64,000 nucleotides of DNA from Patescibacteria group bacterium (GCA_022703645.1 JAKLDG010000001.1:338814-402813); one strand, 5' to 3'. Shown: positions 3,130-10,070, numbered from the stretch's first letter. The notes: a model not told the origin generated them from the letters alone. Translations and numbers: made by a program.

Positions 3130-4070
3130 GAAAAAGATATCTGCTACTATTAACATTATTAATAGTAGGTGGTTTTTGTATTTTTTCACGCGATAAAGCT
3201 TATTCCAGCGCTTCCGCCAAGATTTTTTATGGTGAAAGTTTTATGAAAGAAAACGGTTCCGAAACAAAACTATCGTCTGTCGATAGCGTCGAAATACCAT
3301 TTCAAAAAGAGGGCGCAAATGAACATGTTGCTATAAAAGCGCAAACTTATATTGCAGCTGATCGCGCGACTATGACGCCATTACTTGAAAAAGATGCTGG
3401 AAAAAAGGTCCAAATTGCCAGTATCACAAAATTGATGACCGCCGTTATCACGGTTGAAAACTCAAAACTGGATGATGTGGTTACGATTAACAGCACATTT
3501 AAAGACGCTCCGGATGGCAGAATGGGGCTTTACGTGACAGAAAAAATTACAGTTGAGAATATTCTCAATGGTTTGCTTATCTCTTCTTCAAATGATGCTG
3601 CTGAAGCTCTCGCATATTATATCGGGAAAGGTAATTATAAGTCTTTTATTCAAATGATGAATACAAAAGCGGCTGAAATTGGGATGAGTAATACGCGTTT
3701 TTCGAACGCTATGGGACTTGATAATGGCGAAAACTACTCAACTCCACAAGACCTGGTATATCTAGCAAATTATGCTTTAAAGAATGAATTTATTGCTAAA
3801 ACAGTTAAAACTCAAGAAAAGAGAGTAAAGAATATTGAAGGAACAAGCACTCATTACCTGAAAACTACCGACGAATTGCTCGCTGATAAAGACTTTGAAT
3901 TTTTGGGTTTGAAAACCGGTTCTACACCTGAAGCGGGGGAGTGCCTTCTATCTTTTGCGAAAACAAAAAACGGTCATGAAATCATAACCGTTGTGCTTGG
4001 TTCTATGGATAGGTTCGGTGAAACCAAAGAAATTGTAAAATGGGTAGATGCAAACATTACTTGGGAATAA
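3084..4070 (+). CDS. D-alanyl-D-alanine carboxypeptidase (peptidase S11, PBP5-like)
   Basis: SxxK (SITKLMTA), SxN (SSSND) and KTG (KTGST) motifs. N-terminal TM anchor. Overlaps the upstream gene by 46 nt, so the start is uncertain. Confidence 0.8.
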   Translation: MAKNKSKRHKKVFRIRKRYLLLLTLLIVGGFCIFSRDKAYSSASAKIFYGESFMKENGSETKLSSVDSVEIPFQKEGANEHVAIKAQTYIAADRATMTPLLEKDAGKKVQIASITKLMTAVITVENSKLDDVVTINSTFKDAPDGRMGLYVTEKITVENILNGLLISSSNDAAEALAYYIGKGNYKSFIQMMNTKAAEIGMSNTRFSNAMGLDNGENYSTPQDLVYLANYALKNEFIAKTVKTQEKRVKNIEGTSTHYLKTTDELLADKDFEFLGLKTGSTPEAGECLLSFAKTKNGHEIITVVLGSMDRFGETKEIVKWVDANITWE

Positions 4071-4434
4071 GGTTTTTCCGCAAGTTTTTCAGTATTCCTT
4101 TTATTGTCGCGGGGAGTGTAGTTTTGGTACAAGTATAGTCACAGTATCCTAATTTAAGTAGTTCTCCCCCCTTCTTTTCAAAGGATGTGGGTATAATAAT
4201 TCTTACTTTAGGGTTTTTTTCGCGGATTTTTTCAACTAATTCTTTATAACGAAATCCGCGAATAGCGTCCTTTGAGGTGTACTTCAAAACGATAATGTCA
4301 TACTTAAATTCTTCCAAAACGCTTATATCCTTATTACTTCTTTTGAAAAAGATATCATGTTCCTTTAGTGAGATTGCATAGTGGGCTCGATAATAGTCCT
4401 CTCGTTCAACAATCAAAATCCCTTTCTTTCTCAT
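4057..4434 (-). CDS. pseudo-receiver (REC-like) domain protein lacking the phospho-acceptor Asp
   Basis: CheY-like layout (ILIVERED ... IIVLKYTSKD ... RIIIPTS ... KLGY), but Lys sits where the phosphorylated Asp is expected. Confidence 0.4.
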   Translation of the reverse strand: MRKKGILIVEREDYYRAHYAISLKEHDIFFKRSNKDISVLEEFKYDIIVLKYTSKDAIRGFRYKELVEKIREKNPKVRIIIPTSFEKKGGELLKLGYCDYTCTKTTLPATIKGILKNLRKNLIPK

Positions 4435-4526: not shown

Positions 4527-5219
4527 TTACAGGTTTTCTTGCCAAATGTCAAGAGCAATCCTTGCTGCCTCCTGTTCCGCAGCTTGTTTTGAAGACCCGG
4601 TTCCATCGGCAATCTTTTTATCTTCAAGATAAACACCCATTACAAAAACTTTTGCATGGTCTGGGCCCGATTCTTTTTCAACCTTATAGATTGGTGTAAT
4701 ACCTACTTTTTCCTGGGCTATTTCCTGAAACTTCGATTTTGGATCATAGTAAAGTTCCTTTGAAATAATCTCCGGTAAATAGGGAATTAAATACTTTTTA
4801 ATAAATTTACCCGCTGCCTCATACCCTTGATCAAGATATATTGCGCCAAGTACTGCCTCAAAGGTATTAGCAAGTATTAACTCTCTTGCTTTTCCAGTAG
4901 ACCTTGATTCTCCGCGCGATAGGAGTAGGTGGCTTTCATAACCAAGTTCCTTTGCTATTTTTGAAATCATAGTTCCTCTTACCAATGCCGCGCGCCAGTT
5001 TGTCAATTCTCCTTCAGGATTTGGGTAATTATTGTATAAATAGTCTGTAACAATTAATTCCATACATGCATCGCCAAGAAATTCAAGCCTTTCATTATGA
5101 TCAAGCTTGAAATCTTTATTTTCATTCAAATAGGATCTATGTACAAAAGCCTGCTGGAGTAAATCTTGATTCTTAAATTTTATACCTATTTTCTTTTCTA
5201 TTTCATTTAAATTGCTCAT
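4527..5219 (-). CDS. rnc: ribonuclease III
   Basis: ERLEFLGDA signature and a C-terminal dsRBD. Terminator hairpin with T-run downstream on the minus strand (about 4478-4506). Confidence 0.9.
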   Translation of the reverse strand: MSNLNEIEKKIGIKFKNQDLLQQAFVHRSYLNENKDFKLDHNERLEFLGDACMELIVTDYLYNNYPNPEGELTNWRAALVRGTMISKIAKELGYESHLLLSRGESRSTGKARELILANTFEAVLGAIYLDQGYEAAGKFIKKYLIPYLPEIISKELYYDPKSKFQEIAQEKVGITPIYKVEKESGPDHAKVFVMGVYLEDKKIADGTGSSKQAAEQEAARIALDIWQENL

Positions 5220-5306
5220 TTGAAATTCGCTTTGCTGAAATTCTAAGAAATTGAGGAAATTCTAATATCTAATTTCTCCAATTTCTTTTAATTTCTATTA
5301 ATTTTA

Positions 5307-6152
5307 TTATTTTAGTCTGCCGATATCTTCTACTGCCTTTTTGAATAAATCTACTAAGTTTGGATAATCTAGGTGATTCAAAACCTCTCCTTCTTCCACC
5401 CATTTAATTTCTTTAATATGAGCTTCCGGATTAATTATAGTATTTACCTGAGTAGTTCGTATAAGATAGAAGTGCACGCTTTTTTTGATAACCTCTTCGC
5501 CGCTTTTATCAGTAAATTTAATTTCGCCAACTTCACCAAGAATTTCAGCCTCAGTTATACCTGTTTCTTCTTGAATTTCTCTTACAGCTGCTTCTTGCCA
5601 AGTTTCTCCTTCTTCAACTTTACCTTTTGGAAAAGTCCATTTATCATAAGGGTTTTTGACAATTATAAAAAAGTTTTTCCCATTTTCTACGCGGTATATT
5701 ATTCCACCAGCGCTAATTATCAAGTTTTCTTCTTCATACTTACTACTTGCGCGGTAAATTGTTCCCAATACACCATTAATGAACTTACCACTGTTTTCTC
5801 CGCCAAATTCCTTACCAAGCTCCACAGCCTCATTAATAACCGCTTTTGGAGGCACTTCTGCATCATAAATCAACTCATAAATACCAATTCGCAATATAGA
5901 GCGGTCAATAGTGGCAATCTGTTCAAGAGGCCATTCGGGAGCAGTCTTTTTGATTAAGTCATTGATCTCTGATATTTTTTCCACCGTTCCTTTTATAATC
6001 TTACGGCAAAATTCCTCATCAACCTTAAAACCGGAATTTTCAATATTCCGTTTTAAAATTTCAGCAATATCTCTTTCTTCATCAAAATCCCACTCGTAAA
6101 GAGATTGTAAAACAACCATTCTTGACTGATGTCTAATAGATAGGTGAGACAT
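5307..6152 (-). CDS. nusB: NusB antitermination factor fused to a C-terminal Nudix hydrolase domain
   Basis: N-terminal 135 aa match NusB (VDRSILRIGIYEL..., INEAVELGKEFGG, FINGVL). The C-terminal 140 aa carry the Nudix box GKVEEGETWQEAAVREIQEETG. Confidence 0.85.
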   Translation of the reverse strand: MSHLSIRHQSRMVVLQSLYEWDFDEERDIAEILKRNIENSGFKVDEEFCRKIIKGTVEKISEINDLIKKTAPEWPLEQIATIDRSILRIGIYELIYDAEVPPKAVINEAVELGKEFGGENSGKFINGVLGTIYRASSKYEEENLIISAGGIIYRVENGKNFFIIVKNPYDKWTFPKGKVEEGETWQEAAVREIQEETGITEAEILGEVGEIKFTDKSGEEVIKKSVHFYLIRTTQVNTIINPEAHIKEIKWVEEGEVLNHLDYPNLVDLFKKAVEDIGRLK

Positions 6153-6160
6153 TTTATTAA

Positions 6161-6373
6161 TTATTTAGTTTTTGTTTTTACTTTACCGCTAGCAATACCG
6201 GGTTTCTTCATTTGTCTGCCATTATAAGTACCGCAAACTTTACACACTTGGTGTGATATTTTTGGTGACTTACATTTTGAACAAATAGAAACGCCTGCTA
6301 ATTTTACTTTGATATTCTGCCCTCTGCGACTCGCAGTACGGGACTTACTCATACGTTTTTTGGGTTCTGCCAT
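6161..6373 (-). CDS. rpmF: 50S ribosomal protein L32
   Basis: MAEPKKRMSKSRTASRRGQN... with CxxC...CxxC, typical of L32. Confidence 0.8.
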   Translation of the reverse strand: MAEPKKRMSKSRTASRRGQNIKVKLAGVSICSKCKSPKISHQVCKVCGTYNGRQMKKPGIASGKVKTKTK

Positions 6374-6578: not shown

Positions 6579-7145
6579 CTAAGCTCTTTTTGCAATATTC
6601 TTAGGGTTATTCATATCCCGACCCCACGTTGATGGATTTGATTCTATATAAGAATAAATTTCATCGTAAGATTTTTCATTGCGGATAATGTGTTCATAAT
6701 AGTTGCGTTGCCAGATACGATTTTCAAATGGTATTAATATATTTTGTTTAACCCCATCAATGCATTTTTTCGTTGTTAGTGATTTAAAACGTTGAATTAT
6801 TTGCGGCAATGACAGTTGTTTTTCTGTAGGGGCAAACCCCCGTGTTTGCCCGTTTTTAATTGGGCGGACACAGGGGTCCGCCCCTACGATACAGATAATC
6901 AAATGTATATGATTTGGCATAACAGAAAATATATCTACCTCGATATTTGAATAATACTTTGGGATTTCTTCTATCGTTTGGAAAATTATTATCCCAATAT
7001 CATTCAATCTCATCCCTCCATCAACAATTTCTCCGAACAAACACCCTCTATCTTGTGTACATATTGTAATAAAATAATCTCCGGGTTCGGAATAATCATA
7101 ACCTTTTATTCGTATTGACCTTCTGTTTTTGTTTTCTTTTTACAT
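6579..7145 (-). mobile_element. IS200-like Y1 HuH transposase of the REP-associated (RAYT) type, probably inactivated
   Basis: NHIHLII HuH motif and C-terminal YY catalytic region. The N-terminus (YDYSEPGDYFITICT...LFGEIVDG) matches its paralog at 20.9 kb. The ancestral ATG (7145-7143) is followed immediately by an in-frame TAA; the intact ORF only restarts at TTG 7040. A 66-bp GC-rich palindromic element sits in frame at 6824-6889. Confidence 0.65.
6824..6889. repeat. REPIN-like GC-rich palindromic element (two inverted REP hairpins with GTAG-containing termini), in frame inside the RAYT gene
   Basis: CTGTAGGGGC-[gggcaaac/gtttgccc hairpin]-gtttttaatt-[gggcggac/gtccgccc hairpin]-GCCCCTACGA. 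Far GC-richer than the flanks. On the minus strand it encodes VGADPCVRPIKNGQTRGFAPT. Confidence 0.7.
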
Positions 7146-7160
7146 TAGAACAATTGAGAA

Positions 7161-10070
7161 CTATCTCACAAAATTTACCAATCGATTTTTGACGTAAATT
7201 ATTTTTTTATAGTTTGTTGAAATTTCCTTGAATTTCTCCGTATCTTGAATGACTTTCAATGCGTCTTCCTCGCTCGCATCAAAAGGCATCAGAATATTAC
7301 CGCGGTGTTTGCCGTTTTCTTGAATTACTATTTCAATCATATCTTCTTTTATTTTTTCCGGGTCGTGTTTTGGCCAAGTAAATTTTCCGCTAAAAATACT
7401 TTCTTCAAATCCGAATTGTTGCCAGATTTCCTCCGCGATATGAGGGCAAATAGGAGATAGAAGCAGAATCAAAACCATGTATGGCTGCGGGTAATTATAT
7501 AACAGATCTTTTTTGCTAATTAAAAAGTTGGTAAATTCCATTAATGTCGATACGAGAGTGTTTAAGTGCAGGCGATCCAGATCTTCATTAAATTTCTTGA
7601 TTGTTTTATGTGTCATCACTTCCAGTTCCGTTTCTCCAATTTCAAAAGAATCGGTAATTATTTTTGCCGGATCTTTTTCTTCAACCCGAGGCGCAATTTC
7701 TTGGCCAAGATTCCAGACTTTATTTAGAAATCTCGAAACACCCTCTATTCCTTGGCTGCTCCATGCCGCATCTTGCTCGAAAGGACCGATGAACATTTCA
7801 TAAGCGCGGGCGGTATCAGCACCGTATTTTTCGACAATTTCATTCGGGTTTACTACATTTCCAAGGGATTTACTCATCTTTTTCCCATCTTCTGCTAATA
7901 TCATTCCATGATTAATTCTTTTGGCATAAGGCTCAGAAGTTGGCACAAGCCCAAGATCATGAAAGAAAATATTCCAAAATCTAGAATAAAGCAGATGAAG
8001 CGTGGTATGTTCCGGTCCGCCCTCGTAAATATCCACCGGCATCCAATATTTCAACTTTTCAAAATCAGCGAACTGTTTGTCATTATGAGGATCGATGTAG
8101 CGCAAGAAATACCATGACGAACCTGCCCAGTTCGGCATAGTATCTGTCTCTCTTACAGCAGGTCCATTGCACTTTGGGCAAGTCGTATTTACCCAGTCTG
8201 TAATCTTTGCAAGAGGGGATTGCCCGTCCTCGGTTGGTTCGTAATTTTCCACTTCAGGCAATAGCACAGGCAATTGATCTTCCGGTACAGCAACTTCACC
8301 GCAATTAGGACAATATACAATTGGGATAGGCTCGCCCCAATAATGTTGGCGTGAAAATATCCAGTCGCGCAGATGGTAGGTGGTTATAAAATCACCAAGC
8401 TTCTCATCTTTTAATTTTTGGGTAATCTTTTTTCGAGCTTCCTCAGAGCTTAATCCGGTAAAATCTTGCGAATTGATTAGTACACCATCTCTGGTATACG
8501 CCGGGATTTTCGCGCTCATTTTTTCCTGCCAGATGCCAACCTCGGCATGCGTCATATTAGCATAATTCAATTGCGATTCATCAAGCCAAATCACATCGTG
8601 GTCATCTTTTTCTTTTTGCGAAATATCTTCTTGTGTGTGGTCGACTAATTCAAATAGCACAGCAGTGGTATAAGAAATTCGATTTAAATCTTTGTGATTA
8701 GCAAAATACTCGGTTCGCGTTTGACCGAAAAGAACCCTGTCTAATTTTAAGTTTGTAAACCCAGTTTCTTCGGCAACTTCTCTTTTTGCAGCAGTTACCA
8801 CGTCTTCGCCTTCTTCAATGCCACCCATTGGAAAAGTCGTCCAATCAAAGTTTTTCCATTTAAGTCCAAGATATTTTCCAGTTTTTGGATCGCGAACTAT
8901 GGCATGAATATTTTTTCTTTCAACGGTCTTTTTACCCTCAACTGGCGGGTTTCTTTCATCAATAATATTTGGTACGACTACTTCTTCGATTTTAATTCCA
9001 TATTTAACGGCAAAAGCATAGTCGCGTGTATCGTGAGCGGGAACTGCCATGATAGCGCCTGTACCATAATCTGCAAGCACATAATCAGCAACCCAGACCT
9101 CTACTTTGCGTCCATTTATAGGGTTTATAGCAGTAATACCTTCTAATTTTACGCCCGTCTTTTCCTTATCCTCAACCATTCTTTCAATATTTGACTTTTT
9201 CTTTGATTCATTAATGTATTCCTTGACCTCTTCTAAATTCGAGATTCTATCTTCTAAATTCTTTATGTATCCCGATTCCGGTGCCAAGACAATATATGTA
9301 CAACCAAACAACGTGTCTACCCTAGTAGTGAAAACCTTTATACTAGATTCTAAATTCTTTATTCTAAATTCTATTTCGCTTCCTTCAGATTTTCCTATCC
9401 AGTTTTCCTGCATGAGTTTTACTCTTTCCGGATAATCAACATTTTTTAGCCCTTCGAGTAACTTATCTGCATAAGCTGTAATACGCAACATCCATTGATC
9501 AAGTTCTTTTTTACTTGCGGCAGTTCCGCATCTTTCACATTTTTCATCGATTACTTCTTCATTGGCTAGCCCTATTTTGCAGCTTGGACACCAGTTAATC
9601 GCCATTTTCTTTTTGTAAGCAAGGCCATTTTCATAAAATTTTAGAAAAAACCACTGTGTCCATTCGTAATAAGCCGGATCAGTAGTATCGATTTCGCGAG
9701 ACCAATCAAAAGAATAACCAAGACTTTTTTGTTGTTTCGTAAAATTTGCAATGTTTTGAGCGGTAGCAACCGACGGGTGGATTTTATGCTTTATTGCGTA
9801 GTTTTCAGTGGGCAGACCAAAAGCGTCCCATCCAACCGGAAGCATCACGTTGTAACCCTCGAGCCTTTTCTTGCGCGCAATAATATCAGAAGTAGTCTGA
9901 CCTCGAAGATGCCCCATATGCAGACCATCTCCGGATGGATAATTGAACTCAAACAACATATAGAACTTTGGTTTTTTATCAAAGTCTTTCGCATGATATA
10001 GATCGGGAATCTTTTCCCAGATATCCTGCCATTTTTTTTCGATTTCGTGAGGATTGTAGTTGGTTGACAT
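7161..10070 (-). CDS. leuS: leucyl-tRNA synthetase with an inserted Nudix hydrolase domain
   Basis: HMGH and KMSKS class-I motifs, CP1 editing-domain signatures (TTRVDTLFG, AHDTRDYAF), LeuRS-like termini. About aa 383-515 carry a Nudix box, GGIEEGEDVVTAAKREVAEETG. Confidence 0.9.
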   Translation of the reverse strand: MSTNYNPHEIEKKWQDIWEKIPDLYHAKDFDKKPKFYMLFEFNYPSGDGLHMGHLRGQTTSDIIARKKRLEGYNVMLPVGWDAFGLPTENYAIKHKIHPSVATAQNIANFTKQQKSLGYSFDWSREIDTTDPAYYEWTQWFFLKFYENGLAYKKKMAINWCPSCKIGLANEEVIDEKCERCGTAASKKELDQWMLRITAYADKLLEGLKNVDYPERVKLMQENWIGKSEGSEIEFRIKNLESSIKVFTTRVDTLFGCTYIVLAPESGYIKNLEDRISNLEEVKEYINESKKKSNIERMVEDKEKTGVKLEGITAINPINGRKVEVWVADYVLADYGTGAIMAVPAHDTRDYAFAVKYGIKIEEVVVPNIIDERNPPVEGKKTVERKNIHAIVRDPKTGKYLGLKWKNFDWTTFPMGGIEEGEDVVTAAKREVAEETGFTNLKLDRVLFGQTRTEYFANHKDLNRISYTTAVLFELVDHTQEDISQKEKDDHDVIWLDESQLNYANMTHAEVGIWQEKMSAKIPAYTRDGVLINSQDFTGLSSEEARKKITQKLKDEKLGDFITTYHLRDWIFSRQHYWGEPIPIVYCPNCGEVAVPEDQLPVLLPEVENYEPTEDGQSPLAKITDWVNTTCPKCNGPAVRETDTMPNWAGSSWYFLRYIDPHNDKQFADFEKLKYWMPVDIYEGGPEHTTLHLLYSRFWNIFFHDLGLVPTSEPYAKRINHGMILAEDGKKMSKSLGNVVNPNEIVEKYGADTARAYEMFIGPFEQDAAWSSQGIEGVSRFLNKVWNLGQEIAPRVEEKDPAKIITDSFEIGETELEVMTHKTIKKFNEDLDRLHLNTLVSTLMEFTNFLISKKDLLYNYPQPYMVLILLLSPICPHIAEEIWQQFGFEESIFSGKFTWPKHDPEKIKEDMIEIVIQENGKHRGNILMPFDASEEDALKVIQDTEKFKEISTNYKKIIYVKNRLVNFVR

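Follow-up and report, generated by a model that had tools for sequence, protein, structure and literature searches.

NusB fused to a predicted Ap4A-hydrolase-type Nudix domain is widespread in Patescibacteria

As a core part of the rRNA antitermination complex, NusB has been studied well, and we know of no accessory catalytic domain of this protein in model bacteria. In a stretch of 64,000 nucleotides from a Patescibacteria group bacterium (GCA_022703645.1 JAKLDG010000001.1:338814-402813), which was analysed as a whole and is referred to as the window, the minus strand carries a gene in which NusB continues into a Nudix hydrolase domain. This gene, here termed nusB-nudix, is preceded on its coding strand by leuS and rpmF and followed by rnc. 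An earlier note, made from the sequence alone, had described the fusion at positions 5307-5735, a span that holds only the Nudix half and the stop codon, whereas the whole gene occupies 5307..6152. The gene and its parts are the following:

5307..6152, minus strand: nusB-nudix gene, a single open reading frame (ORF) of 281 amino acids plus stop codon.
5748..6152, minus strand: NusB domain, residues 1-135, all-helical (PF01029, TIGR01951, AlphaFold2 (AF2) model, Foldseek).
5724..5747, minus strand: short linker, residues 136-143, SSKYEEEN (dip in the confidence of the AF2 model).
5310..5723, minus strand: Nudix domain, residues 144-281, of predicted Ap4A-hydrolase or aq_158 type (PF00293, PDB sequence match, Foldseek).
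5556..5624, minus strand: Nudix box G177-I199, GKVEEGETWQEAAVREIQEETGI, with the predicted catalytic residues E183, R191, E192, E195 and E196 (match to a strict regular expression).

As the earlier note had claimed, a complete NusB runs without a stop codon into a full Nudix domain within one ORF, and both domains exceed the curated thresholds of their families. The start was assigned to the ATG at position 6152 and not to that of a shorter, 270-residue gene call by the Joint Genome Institute (JGI), because the N-terminus (R7, H8, R11) is conserved, with the sequence MSHLSIRHQSR being common to homologues of 278-282 residues. The NusB half covers the entire Pfam model PF01029 (model positions 1-133, residues 8-134, E 4e-34, 118 bits with a cutoff of 23.1) and scores 131 bits in the nusB equivalog model TIGR01951 (cutoff 88.35). 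In an AF2 model built on 41 fusions, which displays a mean predicted local distance difference test score (pLDDT) of 93.7, residues 6-135 consist of helices only, with pLDDT values above 90. This half was aligned by Foldseek to NusB of T. maritima (1tzv) and to the Aquifex NusB from the NusB-NusE-boxA complex (3r2c, 3r2c_A), in both cases with template modelling (TM) scores of 0.86-0.87. The canonical NusB motifs (R7/H8/R11, INEAVELGK and KFINGVLG) show little or no variation among the 41 fusions. The fused protein thus resembles canonical NusB in its score above the equivalog cutoff, its seven-helix fold, its Arg-rich N-terminus and the INEAVELxK/FxNGVLG motifs, as well as in the location of its gene upstream of rnc, where other Patescibacteria carry a plain nusB, and it differs from the NusB of model bacteria by the C-terminal Nudix domain of 140 residues. 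Since the plain nusB of other Patescibacteria holds the same rpmF/leuS-nusB-rnc slot, we classify the fused gene as a nusB orthologue. Its NusB half is predicted to bind boxA together with NusE (S10). The linker following this half shows a decrease of the pLDDT to 83-88 and the predicted TM score (pTM) of the entire model is only 0.57, which depicts the protein as two confidently predicted rigid domains on a flexible tether without fixed mutual orientation. In other lineages, the linker is far longer and of low complexity.

The Nudix half is equally well defined. It matches PF00293 with 71 bits (residues 156-261, E 1e-19, cutoff 21.1), so that the C-terminal region passes the detection by hidden Markov model whose failure the earlier note had named as a refutation, and its box (residues 177-199) is an exact instance of the pattern GX5EX7REUXEEXGU. 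A strict regular expression of this pattern finds only two matches in the window, the second of which is located inside the leucyl-tRNA synthetase LeuRS. In the AF2 model, residues 144-280 form the strands and helices of a Nudix domain, with TM scores of up to 0.91 to Nudix structures of the alpha/beta/alpha fold. The best PDB match by sequence is 3i7u, the Ap4A hydrolase aq_158 from Aquifex aeolicus (E 2.6e-15). The top matches comprise 3i7u, 1vc8, 9cxx and 1kt9, and the next-nearest solved proteins are Thermus Ndx1 (an Ap6A hydrolase), the Nudix domain of mycobacterial MutT1/Rv2985 and the Ap4A hydrolase of C. elegans. A corresponding order was obtained with Foldseek, where 3i7u (TM 0.91, root mean square deviation (rmsd) 1.7 Å, 33% identity) is followed by Rv2985/MutT1, by the Ap4A hydrolases of C. 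elegans, Chlamydia (CT771), human (NUDT2) and Plasmodium, and by Ndx1, with the Nudix domains of NrtR also among the matches. Among solved proteins, aq_158 is nearest to the Nudix half in both sequence and fold. In both, a complete Nudix box follows the lead-in W-x-F-P-K-G, whereas aq_158 is a free-standing enzyme of 134 residues from a thermophile, and an identity of 33% guarantees no common substrate range.

In a HMMER alignment, E196 coincides with E51 of aq_158, whose mutation to alanine renders the Aquifex enzyme inactive (PMC13145063), and Phe213 takes the position of a tyrosine in aq_158. A conserved tyrosine located C-terminal to the Nudix box stacks on the adenine and serves as specificity motif of enzymes acting on dinucleoside polyphosphates (ApnA) (PMC5389931). 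In many fusions of Paceibacterota, this position is a tyrosine within a conserved ENEY(V/I)A, and in other fusions it varies. By its closest relatives in sequence and fold, the Nudix half is assigned to the ApnA (Ap4A/Ap6A) hydrolase type of the aq_158, NUDT2 and Ndx1 group, and the domain is predicted to be catalytically intact in the protein of the window.

The earlier note had suggested an action on the 5' ends of RNA similar to that of RppH, and this proposal stands in part. Because the domain gives only weak matches, well under the cutoff of every curated RppH model (NCBIfam PRK00714 models, at best 38.3 bits against 118 in NF001936; 36.9 against 154.4 in TIGR02705, YtkD), we do not file the Nudix half as an RppH, and RppH chains in the PDB match it only with E-values of 2e-6 to 2e-5. 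An RppH-like activity would nevertheless be its favoured function and finds indirect support in the closest solved relative. In vitro, aq_158 converts 5'-tri- and diphosphorylated RNA to the monophosphate, strips m7Gp3, Ap4, NAD, FAD and sugar caps from RNA and hydrolyses Ap4A to Ap6A; it was renamed 'Omnivore RNA pyrophosphatase' (PMC13145063).

The fusion is genuine and widespread in Patescibacteria. Although the existence of separate nusB and nudix genes in some lineages might lead one to suspect an assembly or sequencing error that joins two genes, the probability of such an artefact is practically negligible: neither a stop codon nor a frameshift is found near nucleotides 5735-5750, two other JGI assemblies contain an identical gene flanked by the same genes (and in one of them the LeuRS of 969 residues is also called as a single gene), and fused orthologues of 60-77% identity derive from many samples. 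Among the best 120 database relatives (37-100% identity, 211-336 residues), all 120 contain both Pfam domains. A read-through artefact is thus excluded because of the identical gene in other assemblies and the presence of both domains in all of these relatives. Where a source names these relatives, the name is just 'NusB', and the bacteria concerned are Microgenomates, CPR2, Komeilibacteria and members of the 'Patescibacteria group'.

A survey of NusB architectures in related genomes, as proposed in the earlier note, supports the same conclusion. A scan of GTDB species representatives provided 80 loci, all from metagenome-assembled genomes (MAGs) of Patescibacteria type, 38 of which contain the fused gene (about 290-336 residues) and about 36 a plain nusB (141-179 residues). 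The fused loci are distributed over Komeili-, Kaiser-, Ryan-, Niyogi-, Zambryski- and Nomurabacteria, Paceibacterota, CPR2-like and Microgenomates groups, with named hosts in both the Microgenomates and the Parcubacteria groups, and altogether the fusion is found in more than 120 protein clusters and in 38 GTDB species across Patescibacteria. At five loci from Saccharimonadia-like MAGs (L011, L052, L055, L060 and L063), nusB and nudix are separate neighbours followed by rnc, each ORF having its own stop and start. The Nudix ORFs of these loci are aq_158-like and share a conserved basic N-terminal extension, and their NusB proteins carry a C-terminal tail rich in Lys, Glu and Pro. In 72 of the 80 loci, rnc is located directly downstream of nusB or nusB-nudix, and LeuRS and L32 are encoded upstream in a subset. 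Related stand-alone Nudix genes outside the candidate phyla radiation (CPR) do not adjoin nusB. The association of nusB, nudix and rnc is old and exists as both operon and fusion, a combination of states that is classic genome-context evidence pointing to a joint function. One 138-residue Nudix protein with 70% identity (P0272), which had been considered as a recent split into a stand-alone gene, is in fact a fusion truncated at the end of a contig.

The architecture is apparently undescribed. A search of open-access papers and preprints brought up no account of a NusB-Nudix protein, and a large survey of the Nudix clan does not mention NusB. The fusion proteins have been public for years under the name NusB, with the Nudix half invisible in their annotation.

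The immediate setting of the gene is defined by the following features:

6161..6373, minus strand: rpmF, encoding ribosomal protein L32 (PF01783, E 2e-16).
4527..5219, minus strand: rnc, encoding RNase III (Pfam Ribonucleas_3_3 and dsrm).
5237..5295, minus strand: hairpin in the spacer between nusB-nudix and rnc (folding compared to shuffled sequences).
7161-10070, minus strand: leuS, with a Nudix insert at residues 364-539 (window positions 8454-8981).

The earlier statement that the gene is followed by L32 applies in plus-strand coordinates only, since on the coding strand rpmF is located upstream, its end being separated from nusB-nudix by 8 nucleotides. The proximity to rnc was noted correctly, with the start of the latter 87 nucleotides downstream on the coding strand. 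The genes rpmF and nusB-nudix are probably co-transcribed, and the order of rpmF followed by nusB or nusB-nudix recurs in loci L004, L045, L080, L082 and L085. Terminator-like sites are few in the window and none is found between nusB-nudix and rnc, which suggests co-transcription also of this pair; promoter-like sites are no more frequent than expected from shuffled sequences. The spacer preceding rnc contains a long and imperfect hairpin located just before the rnc start and lacking a trailing T-run, with a minimum free energy of -18.8 kcal/mol (z -2.9) that was equalled by none of 200 shuffles. The rnc leader of E. coli carries an autoregulatory site for RNase III, and by analogy the hairpin might, speculatively, be such a site. 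In the Microgenomates relative L085, the spacer between nusB and rnc holds a different and even longer AU-rich hairpin (z -3.4).

The second perfect Nudix box in the window belongs to the insert in LeuRS, which the earlier note had related to the NusB-linked domain. It had regarded the two boxes as strikingly similar and proposed a single domain that was copied into two RNA-handling proteins, a view that fails, since the motif common to both is in essence the Nudix box found universally and the domains are 30% identical over 127 residues. A local duplication, by which the two would be recent copies of one another, could draw on their distance of about 3 kb, the perfect state of both boxes and a BLASTP E-value of 1e-9, yet it is very improbable in view of their separate relationships. 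In a like-for-like comparison with phmmer, the NusB-linked domain scores 27.7 bits against the LeuRS insert and 59.9 bits against aq_158. With E-values of up to 1e-3 admitted, an exhaustive search with the insert (residues 364-539) yielded 476 representatives. LeuRS proteins make up 111 of the 151 closest and carry the domain once (98 proteins), twice (11) or three times (2); the remaining 40 are short proteins or fragments, and none of the 151 contains a NusB domain. Within this family, scores to the insert reach 68 bits or more (median 88), whereas the 120 NusB-Nudix proteins do not exceed 36 bits (median 23), which places the cross-family scores at background. The signatures differ as well, with W-T-F-P-K-G in the NusB-linked domains and TF.(M/V)GG... 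(TFPMGG) together with F(A)xHKDxNR, both absent from the NusB-linked domain, in the insert family. Finally, the syntenic Microgenomates locus L085 (leuS-rpmF-nusB-nudix-rnc) combines the fusion with a LeuRS of 835 residues without a Nudix domain, and in other genomes all combinations of fusion and LeuRS insert occur. By these sequence relationships, the LeuRS insert is assigned to a separate, LeuRS-specific Nudix family.

The insert itself, which carries a perfect Nudix box, occupies a loop at the surface of the CP1 editing domain, flanked by the motifs AVPAHDxRDxxFA...V and GVLINSxxF(T/S)G, and in LeuRS proteins with multiple copies, two or three Nudix domains are found at different sites. 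It appears to be a sizeable phenomenon in its own right and apparently undescribed, as we found no paper on a LeuRS with a Nudix insert in open-access papers and preprints. The rarity suggested by word-index searches with isolated domains (2 and 35 matches) was an indexing artefact, as evident from the 476 representatives of the exhaustive search. Two candidates for stand-alone relatives of the insert (P0121 and P0122) were identified as LeuRS fragments, the former from a low-coverage and frameshifted contig.

With respect to function, we tentatively propose that NusB tethers an aq_158-like 5'-end pyrophosphatase to nascent pre-rRNA bearing a boxA, a possibility whose prospects we judge as not quite even. 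In this mechanism, NusB and NusE/S10 would bind boxA in the leader of the nascent pre-rRNA and remain with the elongating polymerase. Because the NusB-boxA complex would stay with the polymerase, the tethered Nudix domain would be held close to the 5' end of the same transcript, where it could release pyrophosphate or strip off a non-canonical cap, producing a 5'-monophosphate. Such an end would license 5'-end-dependent nucleases, allowing the leader to be cleared after cleavage of the processing stem by the co-encoded RNase III, and free ApnA might be hydrolysed by the fused enzyme as well. In lineages without the glutamate of the 'RE' pair in the Nudix box, the domain would probably retain a binding or structural role only. 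The antitermination complex of E. coli bridges the 5' and 3' ends of rRNA and boosts co-transcriptional cleavage by RNase III (bioRxiv 10.64898/2026.03.17.712431; PMC10250234). The link to rRNA processing drawn in the earlier note is backed by the near-universal adjacency of nusB or nusB-nudix and rnc in the loci of Patescibacteria.

Several observations weigh against this proposal. The AF2 model defines no interdomain geometry (pTM 0.57), the cutoffs of the RppH models are missed (at best 38.3 bits versus 118), and the authors of the aq_158 study stress that the substrate preference of Nudix proteins is unreadable from sequence (PMC13145063). The window contains neither an rRNA operon nor a boxA, with a scan of both strands of the 64 kb at the Rfam gathering thresholds retrieving zero RNA families (tRNA, rRNA, riboswitch or leader). 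The active site varies, as all five key residues (E183, R191, E192, E195 and E196) are kept in 32 of the 41 database fusions and in only 15 of the 38 GTDB fusions, which are mostly of Paceibacterota type. Of the latter 38, 21 have K, V, A, S, I or G in place of E192, the glutamate of the 'RE' pair. We take this residue to be the equivalent of E53 in E. coli RppH, which is mutated in the standard inactive variant. In fusions of Paceibacterota type (loci L008-L053), the pair is found in the variants RK, RV, RA, RS, NK and AK, and where the glutamate is replaced, the EE pair is still conserved, as are the fold motifs around it. The Nudix half also evolves faster than the NusB half, with a median identity to the window protein of 57% versus 77% in close relatives and of 34% versus 50% in distant ones. 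Given the replacement of E192 in 21 and the full set of residues in 15 of the 38 GTDB fusions, catalysis cannot explain the association of NusB and Nudix in every lineage, and some branches of the radiation may have converted the domain to binding or to a structural function.

Two alternatives have to be considered in this light. In one, the Nudix half would be a housekeeping hydrolase of free Ap4A and other ApnA, or of oxidised or alarmone nucleotides, fused to NusB merely as its neighbour in a streamlined genome, for co-expression only and without a mechanistic link to transcription. The closest characterised relatives were indeed all first defined as Ap4A/Ap6A or 8-oxo-GTP hydrolases, the two genes are separate in some lineages and the stand-alone relatives in bacteria outside the CPR do not adjoin nusB, while a short or low-complexity linker between domains without fixed orientation would agree with mere co-expression. 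Still, adjacency or fusion is kept over very divergent classes of Patescibacteria while most neighbours change, such long-lived fusions in reduced genomes usually signify a joint function, and the domain is retained even where the 'RE' glutamate is lost, which together make the housekeeping role rather unlikely.

In the other alternative, the domain would be a non-catalytic accessory module, binding nucleotides or 5' ends or acting as a scaffold, that stabilizes or regulates NusB on the transcript. This would account for those fusions in which E192 is replaced and for the few members where the Nudix box is wholly lost (P0110, P0022), yet the domain with flanking motifs such as LALVHDVFGHWTLSKGK is conserved. 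It finds parallels in SuhB, an integral stabilizing subunit of the E. coli complex (PMC6614797; bioRxiv 10.64898/2026.03.17.712431), and in the ligand-sensing Nudix domains of NrtR among the fold matches. Conversely, the box is perfect in the window protein and its clade, 32 of the 41 database relatives keep all five residues, and E196 is retained in 36 of the 38 GTDB fusions. Because the catalytic residues are mostly kept, there appears to be selection for hydrolysis in most lineages, this one included, so that we regard a role as accessory module as distinctly unlikely overall, and a function as scaffold or sensor as less likely for the window protein itself. The proposed tethering of a 5'-end pyrophosphatase by NusB thus remains our preferred reading.

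A comparison with known systems illustrates what the protein might do. RppH (NudH in E. coli, YtkD-type in B. subtilis) is a Nudix enzyme that generates 5'-monophosphates and in this way primes RNA decay or processing, which is the activity proposed here by analogy, but it is not tethered to a transcription factor. The 16S rRNA m5C967 methyltransferase RsmB/Sun offers a precedent, with an RNA-binding domain of NusB fold preceding an enzyme that acts on rRNA, and RsmB models match residues 9-138 of the fusion; the partner in RsmB is a S-adenosylmethionine-dependent methyltransferase and its NusB-like domain a paralogue, whereas the fused gene is classified as a nusB orthologue. SuhB, a protein of enzyme fold placed beside NusB/NusE-boxA, stabilizes the complex and promotes the maturation of rRNA (PMC6614797; bioRxiv 10.64898/2026.03.17.712431), and may serve as an analogy for a Nudix module that travels with NusB, although its inositol monophosphatase fold is unrelated and it is a polypeptide of its own that joins the complex through NusA. 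The eukaryotic decapping enzyme Dcp2 is built in the same order, with an all-helical regulatory domain at the N-terminus and behind it a catalytic Nudix domain for RNA 5' ends. Its full-length Foldseek match to the fusion (232-250 columns) reflects domain order only, with rmsd values of 12-15 Å and identities of 13-18%.

A wider picture would present NusB-Nudix as an elongation factor with its own enzyme for deprotecting or gripping the 5' end, which would ride on boxA with RNA polymerase, process or hold the 5' terminus of the pre-rRNA while it is being transcribed, act with the co-encoded RNase III and, in Patescibacteria, stabilize the complex in the manner of SuhB in E. coli. We regard this as possible but, in its entirety, doubtful. 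If true, it would be the first case of bacterial 5'-end chemistry that is physically coupled to the elongation complex, and lineages with a degenerate box would represent a transition from an enzyme to a pure subunit binding 5' ends or nucleotides. The lineage-wide fusion or adjacency with an aq_158-like enzyme and RNase III suggests that the very reduced Patescibacteria may have wired the state of the pre-rRNA 5' end, or the sensing of dinucleoside polyphosphates, directly into the machinery of transcription and processing. The protein offers an entry point to rRNA maturation in ultra-small bacteria and to the natural substrates of Nudix enzymes of the Ap4A-hydrolase type.

Other reading frames at the locus were assigned as follows. 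Two ORFs antisense to nusB-nudix on the plus strand (5373..5957 and 5911..6099) are without any Pfam match and were taken as shadow ORFs of the AT-rich gene. Directly 3' of rnc, an ORF of 125 residues (4057-4434, minus strand) has no Pfam match, and ORFs that correspond to it in size and position are called in the relatives L002 and L084. Between leuS and rpmF, an ORF of 153 residues (6579-7040, minus strand) shows a weak match to IS200-like Y1 transposases (PF01797, E 1.7e-6) that is confined to its C-terminal part. No gene is found at its place in the syntenic locus L085, and the ORF is probably the remnant of a transposase.

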